Source: a virus (taxonomy: Duplodnaviria; Heunggongvirae; Uroviricota; Caudoviricetes). Taken from it: a stretch of DNA of 14,429 nucleotides. The translations under genes were made by a program, and so were the position numbers. Below, piece by piece: positions 6,934-8,100 of the stretch. Positions within the stretch are counted from its first letter, which is position 1. Each line of letters opens with the position of its first letter. The notes below the pieces were generated by a model. It was not told where the DNA came from, ran no database searches, and saw only the letters and a list, made by a program, of their open reading frames with translations. Location of the stretch: IMG/VR virus record IMGVR_UViG_2630968766_000006, positions 1-14,429 of that record. One strand, given 5' to 3'.

Positions 6934-8100
6934 ATGAAAAAACTGATTGAACTGCGCCGCAGTAAAACCACCAAAACCGCCGAGATGCGGGCCATTCTGA
7001 ATAAAGCTGAATCCGAAAAACGTTCAATGTCTGACGATGAGGTTAAACAGTTCGATGCCATCAAGGTGCAAGTTGACGCGCTCAACGAAGAAATCCAGCG
7101 ATATGAAGACCTGATTGACCAGGAGCGCGAGGACGGCAAAAAGCCCGAAGATGATAAAGCTACCCGCAGCACGGTGAGCAATGCCGAACTGCGCAACTAC
7201 ATCACCACCGGCGAAACCCGAACCCTGAGCACCGCCACTGGCGCGGATGGTGGTTATACCGTCATCCCTGAACTGGATAAAGAGATCATGCGCCGCGTTA
7301 CGGATGATTCCGTTATGCGTCGGATCTGTACGGTCAAAACCACTTCCAGCGGCACCTATAAAAAGCTGGTGTCCGTGGGCGGGGCCGGGGTCAATCATAG
7401 CGAGGAAAGCGGCACGCGCACTGAAACCGCAACGCCTAAACTGGAAGAGGTCGCCATCCCGCTGTATCCGATTTATGCCTATCCAAAAACTACCCAGGAA
7501 ATTCTTGATTTCTCCGAAGTGGATATTCTGGGCTGGCTGTCTGAGGAAGTGGCCGATACTTTCACCGAAACCGAAGATACCGATCTGGTGAGCGGCGATG
7601 GGGCGAAAAAATCTAAAGGCTTCCTGAATTACCCTCTGGCTATTACCAACGATAAAACCCGTGCATTCGGTACGCTGCAAAAGCATGTTGTGGCGGAAAT
7701 CTCTTCTGATGCGGTGATCGACCTGCTTTATAAGCTGAAATAGAAATACCGTAAAAATGCGGTCTGGACGATGAACTCTAACACCGCCGCCGCACTCCAG
7801 AAGCTGAAAAACGGCAACGGGGATTATATCTGGCGTGACCGTCTGGCCGCCGATGCCCCCGATATGCTGCTGGGCCGTCCGGTGGAATATCTCGAAACCA
7901 TGCCAGATGCCGAAGCCGGTAAAGCGTGTCTGGCCGTGGGCGACTTCAAACGCGGCTATTACATCGTGGATCATGAAACCGGCGTGCGCACGCGCCCGGA
8001 CAACATCACTGAACCTGGATTTTATAAGGTCAATACCGATAAATATCTGGGCGGCGGCGTGGTGGACTCCTGCGCCATCAAGGTACTGGAAATCGCGTAA
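6934..8100 (+). pseudogene. HK97-family major capsid protein gene interrupted by a single in-frame TAG at 7741-7743 (fragments 6934-7743 and 7771-8100 are in the same frame)
   Basis: N-terminal coiled-coil delta-domain-like region, then capsid core; residues either side of the stop (LYKLK * KYRKNAVWTMNSNTAAALQKLKNGNGDYIW) read as one continuous conserved HK97-fold segment; no frameshift. Confidence 0.7.

Follow-up and report, generated by a model that had tools for sequence, protein, structure and literature searches.

[quoted passage not shown] 2022/2023; He et al. 2025); the list of their core components and the order in which these stand have been given by Alqurainy et al. (bioRxiv 10.1101/2022.09.08.507074) and de Sousa et al. 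(NAR 2023, PMC10085698). One-by-one mutation of the packaging-module genes of EcCIEDL933 abolished transfer, or severely reduced it in the case of the hypothetical gene 1792, leaving replication unaffected, and the titres were restored by complementation in trans (Alqurainy et al., bioRxiv 10.1101/2022.09.08.507074). At the level of single residues, K290D, E319K and R345D abolish transfer and D295K cuts it 100-fold; the head proteins of cf-PICIs work only with each other, phage counterparts being no substitute, and DNA-filled tail-less capsids are made even without a helper (He et al., bioRxiv 10.1101/2025.02.11.637232). In satellites, components may be missing because genes were lost or have become pseudogenes (de Sousa et al., PMC10085698).

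The DNA analysed here, referred to as the window, is a stretch of 14,429 nt whose gene content and ends make its assignment to the cf-PICIs well supported: an island of ~13.9 kb placed between gcd and hpt in E. coli. With EcCIEDL933, which is of similar size (15.4-15.5 kb), it has in common the genes for the integrase (int), AlpA (alpA), a D5-type primase, an HK97-fold capsid protein, the S78 protease, portal, adaptor, connector and HNH proteins and both terminase subunits (TerS, TerL), and neither of the two has tail or lysis genes. The window differs from the prototype in its gcd-hpt integration, in its accessory genes and in the capsid gene, which carries a nonsense mutation at codon 270 (S270*).

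Gene content and insertion site of the island

The island was compared mainly with two intact islands from the same gcd-hpt site, L009 from E. coli (GCA_012995625.1) and L007 from Salmonella enterica (GCA_031912005.1); all features below are on the plus strand unless stated otherwise. The PICI-type left module is complete, with an arm-type tyrosine integrase at the left island end (1-1221; PF00589, PF13356), an AlpA-family regulator (2175-2459; PF05930) and a D5/P4-type primase-replicase (4260-6080; D5_N, DUF5906, Pox_D5). Two small ORFs between the latter two genes (3028-3234 and 3621-3911) both matched PHROG 1743 ('transcriptional repressor').

The head and packaging module has all its components in the canonical order, the capsid gene (6934-8100) being present but interrupted. 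Downstream of it stand the intact genes for the prohead serine protease (S78; 8143-8697; equal in length to those of L007 and L009), the portal protein (8699-9898; identical as a protein to the portal of L009), the head completion or head-tail adaptor protein (9895-10230; PF05521), a gp6-like head-tail connector (10227-10520; PF05135), an HNH endonuclease (10520-10876), the small terminase subunit of the P27 family (11152-11505; PF05119) and the large terminase subunit (11517-13190; identical to that of L009). No match to tail, lysis or holin families was found among the ORFs scanned.

The right end of the island is marked by the 19-nt attR core TATCAATCGGTGTATCAAC (13810-13828), and the attL copy lies ~20-38 nt upstream of the first base of the window. 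The direct att repeats are 13,847 bp apart, start to start, giving an island of ~13.9 kb, within the ~10-15 kb expected of such satellites. The host gene hpt (13893-14429) lies in the right chromosomal flank, outside the island. Both att cores are present in L001, L002, L007, L008, L009 and L010, thus at both ends of the two intact islands as well, and L001, L002, L008 and L010 carry an island identical to that of the window. The right flank matches E. coli chromosomes, and the sources of the exact integrase, primase, protease, portal and TerL sequences and of the flanking gcd sequence label them as Escherichia coli. Diverse cf-PICIs of E. coli and Salmonella share the site upstream of hpt for their insertion. 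Two further E. coli loci, L011 and L012, have different cf-PICIs beside hpt, with intact capsid genes; the att core was not found in the stretches fetched for them, and in both a small ORF at a position similar to that of the PHROG 1743 ORFs is annotated as an Icd-like cell-division inhibitor.

The capsid gene and its amber codon

The major capsid gene (6934-8100, 388 codons) matched the PDB entry 9GYI ('major head protein') over its full length with 64% identity (E = 4.5e-148), and 9GYI is the capsid of EcCIEDL933 (He et al., bioRxiv 10.1101/2025.02.11.637232). Together with the finding of PF05065 on both pieces of the gene, this match upholds its preliminary description as an HK97-type major capsid gene of a capsid-forming satellite. 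Translation of the gene gave a single in-frame internal stop, the TAG at 7741-7743 in the context CTG AAA TAG AAA TAC CGT, as had been described from the letters alone; the natural stop is the TAA at 8098-8100. The changed base is 7742, which is A in the window and C in the intact alleles.

The amber codon divides the gene into a predicted truncated product of 269 aa (6934-7743), which keeps everything N-terminal of the last 119 residues (with 9GYI as the basis of the domain assignment), and a remainder of 118 codons (7744-8100) that would stay untranslated. Residues 270-388 are thereby removed from the protein, among them K292, D297, E321 and R352. The ORF finder listed the second piece from an internal ATG (7771-8100, 109 aa). 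That the two ORFs belong to one capsid gene in one frame, as claimed earlier, agrees with the unbroken register: the Pfam profile Phage_capsid (PF05065) matched with its positions 1-159 on the upstream piece and with 162-279 on the downstream piece. No single polypeptide gives the full-length match, the two ORFs being split by the TAG in an otherwise continuous reading frame, and a single domain cut in two with its register kept is what this pattern indicates. On both sides of the stop the identity to 388-aa capsid proteins of Salmonella is 94-97%; with homology to full-length capsid proteins on either side, the TAG is not a chance observation.

Gene callers annotate two ORFs here, of 269 and 109 aa, as they would for a naturally split or programmed two-part capsid gene, in a family whose capsid proteins end at this point and are followed by a separate gene. 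The homologues refute this: all 120 (cluster representatives) are single proteins of 384-393 aa that have a sense codon, and never a stop, at column 270. Moreover, the solved EcCIEDL933 capsid is one chain across the point of the stop. The ATG at 7771 has no obvious Shine-Dalgarno sequence, which makes a second polypeptide unlikely, and there is no indication that an HK97 fold in two parts could assemble. A two-part gene can therefore be given almost no credence, and the expectation under which the preliminary description would have been abandoned, namely homologues naturally ending here, did not materialise.

The alignment proposed earlier for finding the replaced sense codon gave a clear answer. 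Codon 270 is TCG (Ser) in both L009 and L007, which encode the complete 388-aa protein, and the five closest protein homologues all have serine at this position (5/5). These alleles show that the ancestral codon was TCG, so that the lesion is a single C-to-A transversion at 7742. Among the 120 homologues, column 270 is occupied by K (55), S (29), A (27) or R (9), and the position is a variable and presumably tolerant one; K292, D297, E321 and R352, all downstream of the stop, are invariant in the same set.

Two other capsid changes, polarised with L007, fall on the branch of the window: G156S (7399) and A232N (7627-7628), the latter a two-base change. L009 has retained G156 and A232, and column 156 is Gly in 115 of the 120 homologues and Ala in the remaining 5. 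The synonymous and non-synonymous changes on this branch number 4 and 4 in the capsid gene, 6 and 3 (codons 84, 132 and 179) in the protease gene and 7 and 0 in the portal gene, a pattern that hints at relaxed constraint, from counts too small and in an island too mosaic for a conclusion; given the mosaic divergence from L009, recombination explains it equally well.

Several side observations concern the surroundings of the gene. The leader of 220 nt between the 92-aa ORF and the capsid gene (6714-6933) is an unusually structured RNA (-73 kcal/mol, z = -5.3; none of 200 shuffles folded as well) containing a 10-bp GC-rich stem, GATCCCCCGG...CCGGGGGATC, and could be a regulatory leader of the head operon. 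Directly after the capsid stop and before the protease gene, a consensus scan picked out a terminator-like GC hairpin, GGGGCTTCGGCCCC, followed by TTTTT (8106-8119), which could determine how much capsid protein is made relative to the head proteins encoded further downstream. An open reading frame of 435 aa on the minus strand (7024-8331) lies antisense to the capsid gene and is probably a by-product of codon composition.

Short C-terminal capsid fragments from other genomes (P0129-P0135) clustered with the 109-aa ORF. In P0130-P0135 they result from frameshifts in the G-run encoding KYLGGGVV, equivalent to ~8040-8060 of the window. They were rejected as independent capsid disruptions, since they resemble homopolymer sequencing errors, unlike the substitution described here; not being comparable lesions, they provide no base rate for it.

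Inheritance of the amber allele and state of the other genes

At least seven independent data sets, either read sets or assemblies, have the TAG-bearing sequence in identical form; they comprise one assembly with a 4.77-Mb contig, one short-read draft and Logan assemblies from five separate runs. Identity to the window was 100% over all 14,429 nt in GCA_053349195.1 (the 4.77-Mb contig), GCA_013057945.1 (the short-read draft) and ERR11457683, and it was complete over shorter contigs in SRR11949349, SRR15686316 and SRR15686320. The remaining run, SRR15731716 (L003), differed from the window by two SNPs and one 1-nt deletion, located at 6041, 6313 and 1829, all outside the capsid gene. The deletion, at the equivalent of 1829, shortens the accessory gene beside the integrase from 219 to 213 aa and is a second lesion that has arisen within the clone.

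Sequencing or assembly error over a true sense codon had been one of the explanations offered in the preliminary description. A single-base substitution is a change that an error could produce, and no other support for this explanation was found; the recurrence of the same TAG in at least seven independent sets excludes it at the level of assemblies, and its probability is negligible. S270* is a real, inherited and clonally distributed mutation.

Among public contigs, 23 encode precisely the 269-aa product. The host flanks, up to 21 kb, are identical in GCA_053349195.1, GCA_013057945.1, SRR11949349 and ERR11457683, and since the carriers agree across the host flanks too, they represent one clone. 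The capsid gene was broken in all of the 24 contigs with the primase allele of the window that were read (the 24 longest) and intact in none; 19 of these have no capsid CDS call (NCBI annotation) and 5 show the split into 269 and 109 aa. One of the 19 was checked at the DNA level, and the TAG was present.

A repaired form of the protein, with any of the seven amino acids reachable in one step at position 270, is absent from ~15 billion proteins. An exact-pattern scan around codon 270, with the codon itself wildcarded, gave no match in the GTDB species-representative genomes, which do not have this allele of the island. Among 5,426 complete E. coli genomes, searched by megablast with the capsid gene and with the whole window, there was no copy of the island; the search found only related cf-PICIs of 75-83% identity, all with intact capsid genes.

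The other called genes of the island have no internal stops. The eight head and packaging genes compared are equal in length to those of L007 and L009, and the gene lengths of the left module are those of L009 except for two small ORFs (133 vs 153 aa and 96 vs 101 aa). The earlier statement that the other head and packaging genes are intact thus held, and with the att repeats intact as well the TAG is the only visible lesion of the island in the window. Such an intact remainder fits a recent event; it fits a very recent mutation and continued selection on a functional island equally.

The sister islands agree with the window in the att core and in gene order and differ from it to unequal degrees. 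L009 comes from a different E. coli lineage, with a divergence of 2-3% in the host flanks, and shares 98.5-98.9% identity with the window; L007 is ~91.5% identical across the head and packaging module. The divergence from L009 is mosaic: TerL, the connector and orf49 are identical, the portal gene has only synonymous changes and the primase gene differs in 71 codons. As far as sequence comparison can tell, this pattern points to recombination and to horizontal movement of island modules between E. coli lineages.

The same distribution bears on the possibility that the loss of the capsid was selected, as a domestication that benefits the host or stabilises the island with its other functions kept; the stop would then disable the capsid just as in plain gene decay, and only the cause of its fixation would differ. 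The TAG allele in all 24 contigs read would agree with this, as would the presence of the clone in several unrelated sequencing projects; DNA-filled tail-less capsids made without a helper (He et al., bioRxiv 10.1101/2025.02.11.637232) could be costly, and the branch has, besides the stop, G156S at a near-invariant Gly and three protease changes. Against it, the allele has one origin in one clone, where fixation follows trivially from clonal descent, and no recurrence was seen: the capsid gene is intact in the related islands that occupy this site in other E. coli and in Salmonella. PADLOC detected no known defence gene on the island and hence gave no support for its retention as a defence island, and too few substitutions were counted for relaxed or positive selection to be demonstrated. 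There being no positive evidence for domestication, we regard a selected loss as unlikely.

Capsid formation, read-through and transfer

The reading preferred here is that the island has recently lost autonomous capsid formation through ordinary early gene decay and that this loss was fixed clonally, which we consider highly probable. One clonal host lineage acquired a single C-to-A change at 7742, by which TCG (Ser270) became TAG. In an ordinary host without a suppressor, translation would end after residue 269, and a product lacking the C-terminal 119 residues of the HK97 fold would form no shell. The island would presumably still excise and replicate, but it would form no capsids and would not transfer itself. 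The null allele would have become fixed by clonal descent, as a recent and early step of decay, not as a designed feature.

We infer the loss of capsid assembly and transfer by homology to the experiments with EcCIEDL933. In the alignment to 9GYI, the residues K290, D295, E319 and R345 of that capsid correspond to K292, D297, E321 and R352 of the window, so that the lost C-terminal part holds the equivalents of residues critical for transfer. With the ancestral TCG, this makes the loss of the island's own capsid-building the best supported of the explanations named in the preliminary description. Since cf-PICIs package only into capsids of their own proteins, an island with a broken capsid gene would presumably be unable to transfer itself, and a helper phage should not be able to substitute; the usual route of own small capsids completed by helper-phage tails is predicted to fail for the S270* allele. 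The protease and portal genes further downstream may be subject to Rho-dependent polarity. The capsid-null island could still be mobilised through phage transduction, or if a related cf-PICI residing in the same host complements it.

A different outcome would follow if the amber codon were read through, owing to a suppressor tRNA of the clone or of a helper phage or to a high natural read-through, in which case full-length capsid protein would be made and the island would be mobile. Amber suppressors are uncommon in wild isolates, and a literature search for natural ones in wild E. coli found only papers on genetic-code engineering. The scan of the window for tRNA and tmRNA genes was negative, and there was no Rfam match in it; the ~10 kb of host flanks likewise contain no tRNA. 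The sense codon in the sister and outgroup alleles marks the stop as a derived lesion, not a feature of the family, and suppression would also extend another island gene (6435-6713) that ends in TAG. Basal read-through is an implausible source for a T=4 shell, which needs hundreds of subunits. What speaks for this reading is the site itself, together with the intactness of all other island genes: column 270 tolerates K, S, A and R, so that the protein would probably accept whichever residue a classical suppressor puts in (Ser, Gln, Tyr, Lys or Leu), and the stop is followed by A, classical genetics having shown UAG before A to be a relatively favourable context for amber suppression. With a tolerant position and this following base, a suppressed product would probably work; that it is actually made is, on balance, quite improbable.

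The same three features, a substitution-tolerant residue, the suppression-friendly UAG-A context and the retention of all other genes, underlie a more specific idea, in which the amber codon would act as a gate that switches on the capsid, and hence mobility, only where the host or a helper phage supplies a suppressor tRNA. We hold this to be very improbable.

Within the preferred reading of a recent, clonally fixed loss, the allele has parallels among known mutants. The engineered packaging and capsid mutants of EcCIEDL933 lose transfer with replication unaffected, and the allele of the window would, judged by its sequence, be their natural equivalent; it differs from them in its natural origin and in being fixed in a wild clone. 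In the classical amber mutants of head genes (lambda Eam, P22 gene 5 am, T4 gene 23 am), one UAG causes a conditional-lethal defect of head assembly that is rescued by suppressor hosts. Those mutants were selected in the laboratory and propagated on suppressor strains, in contrast to the present allele, which occurs in natural isolates, on a satellite integrated in the chromosome, where nothing points to a suppressor.

Nonsense mutations in structural genes of integrated mobile elements are commonplace, and the present case is a routine one in a mobile element of a single clone, involving no new mechanism. Its interest lies in a naturally occurring and clonally fixed capsid-null allele of a cf-PICI whose remainder is intact, a snapshot of the first step towards an immobile chromosomal passenger. 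For annotation pipelines, it means that a satellite complete by its gene content can be non-functional. If the reading is true, the island is also a ready-made natural control for transfer experiments, in which a single A-to-C repair at 7742 should restore mobility.
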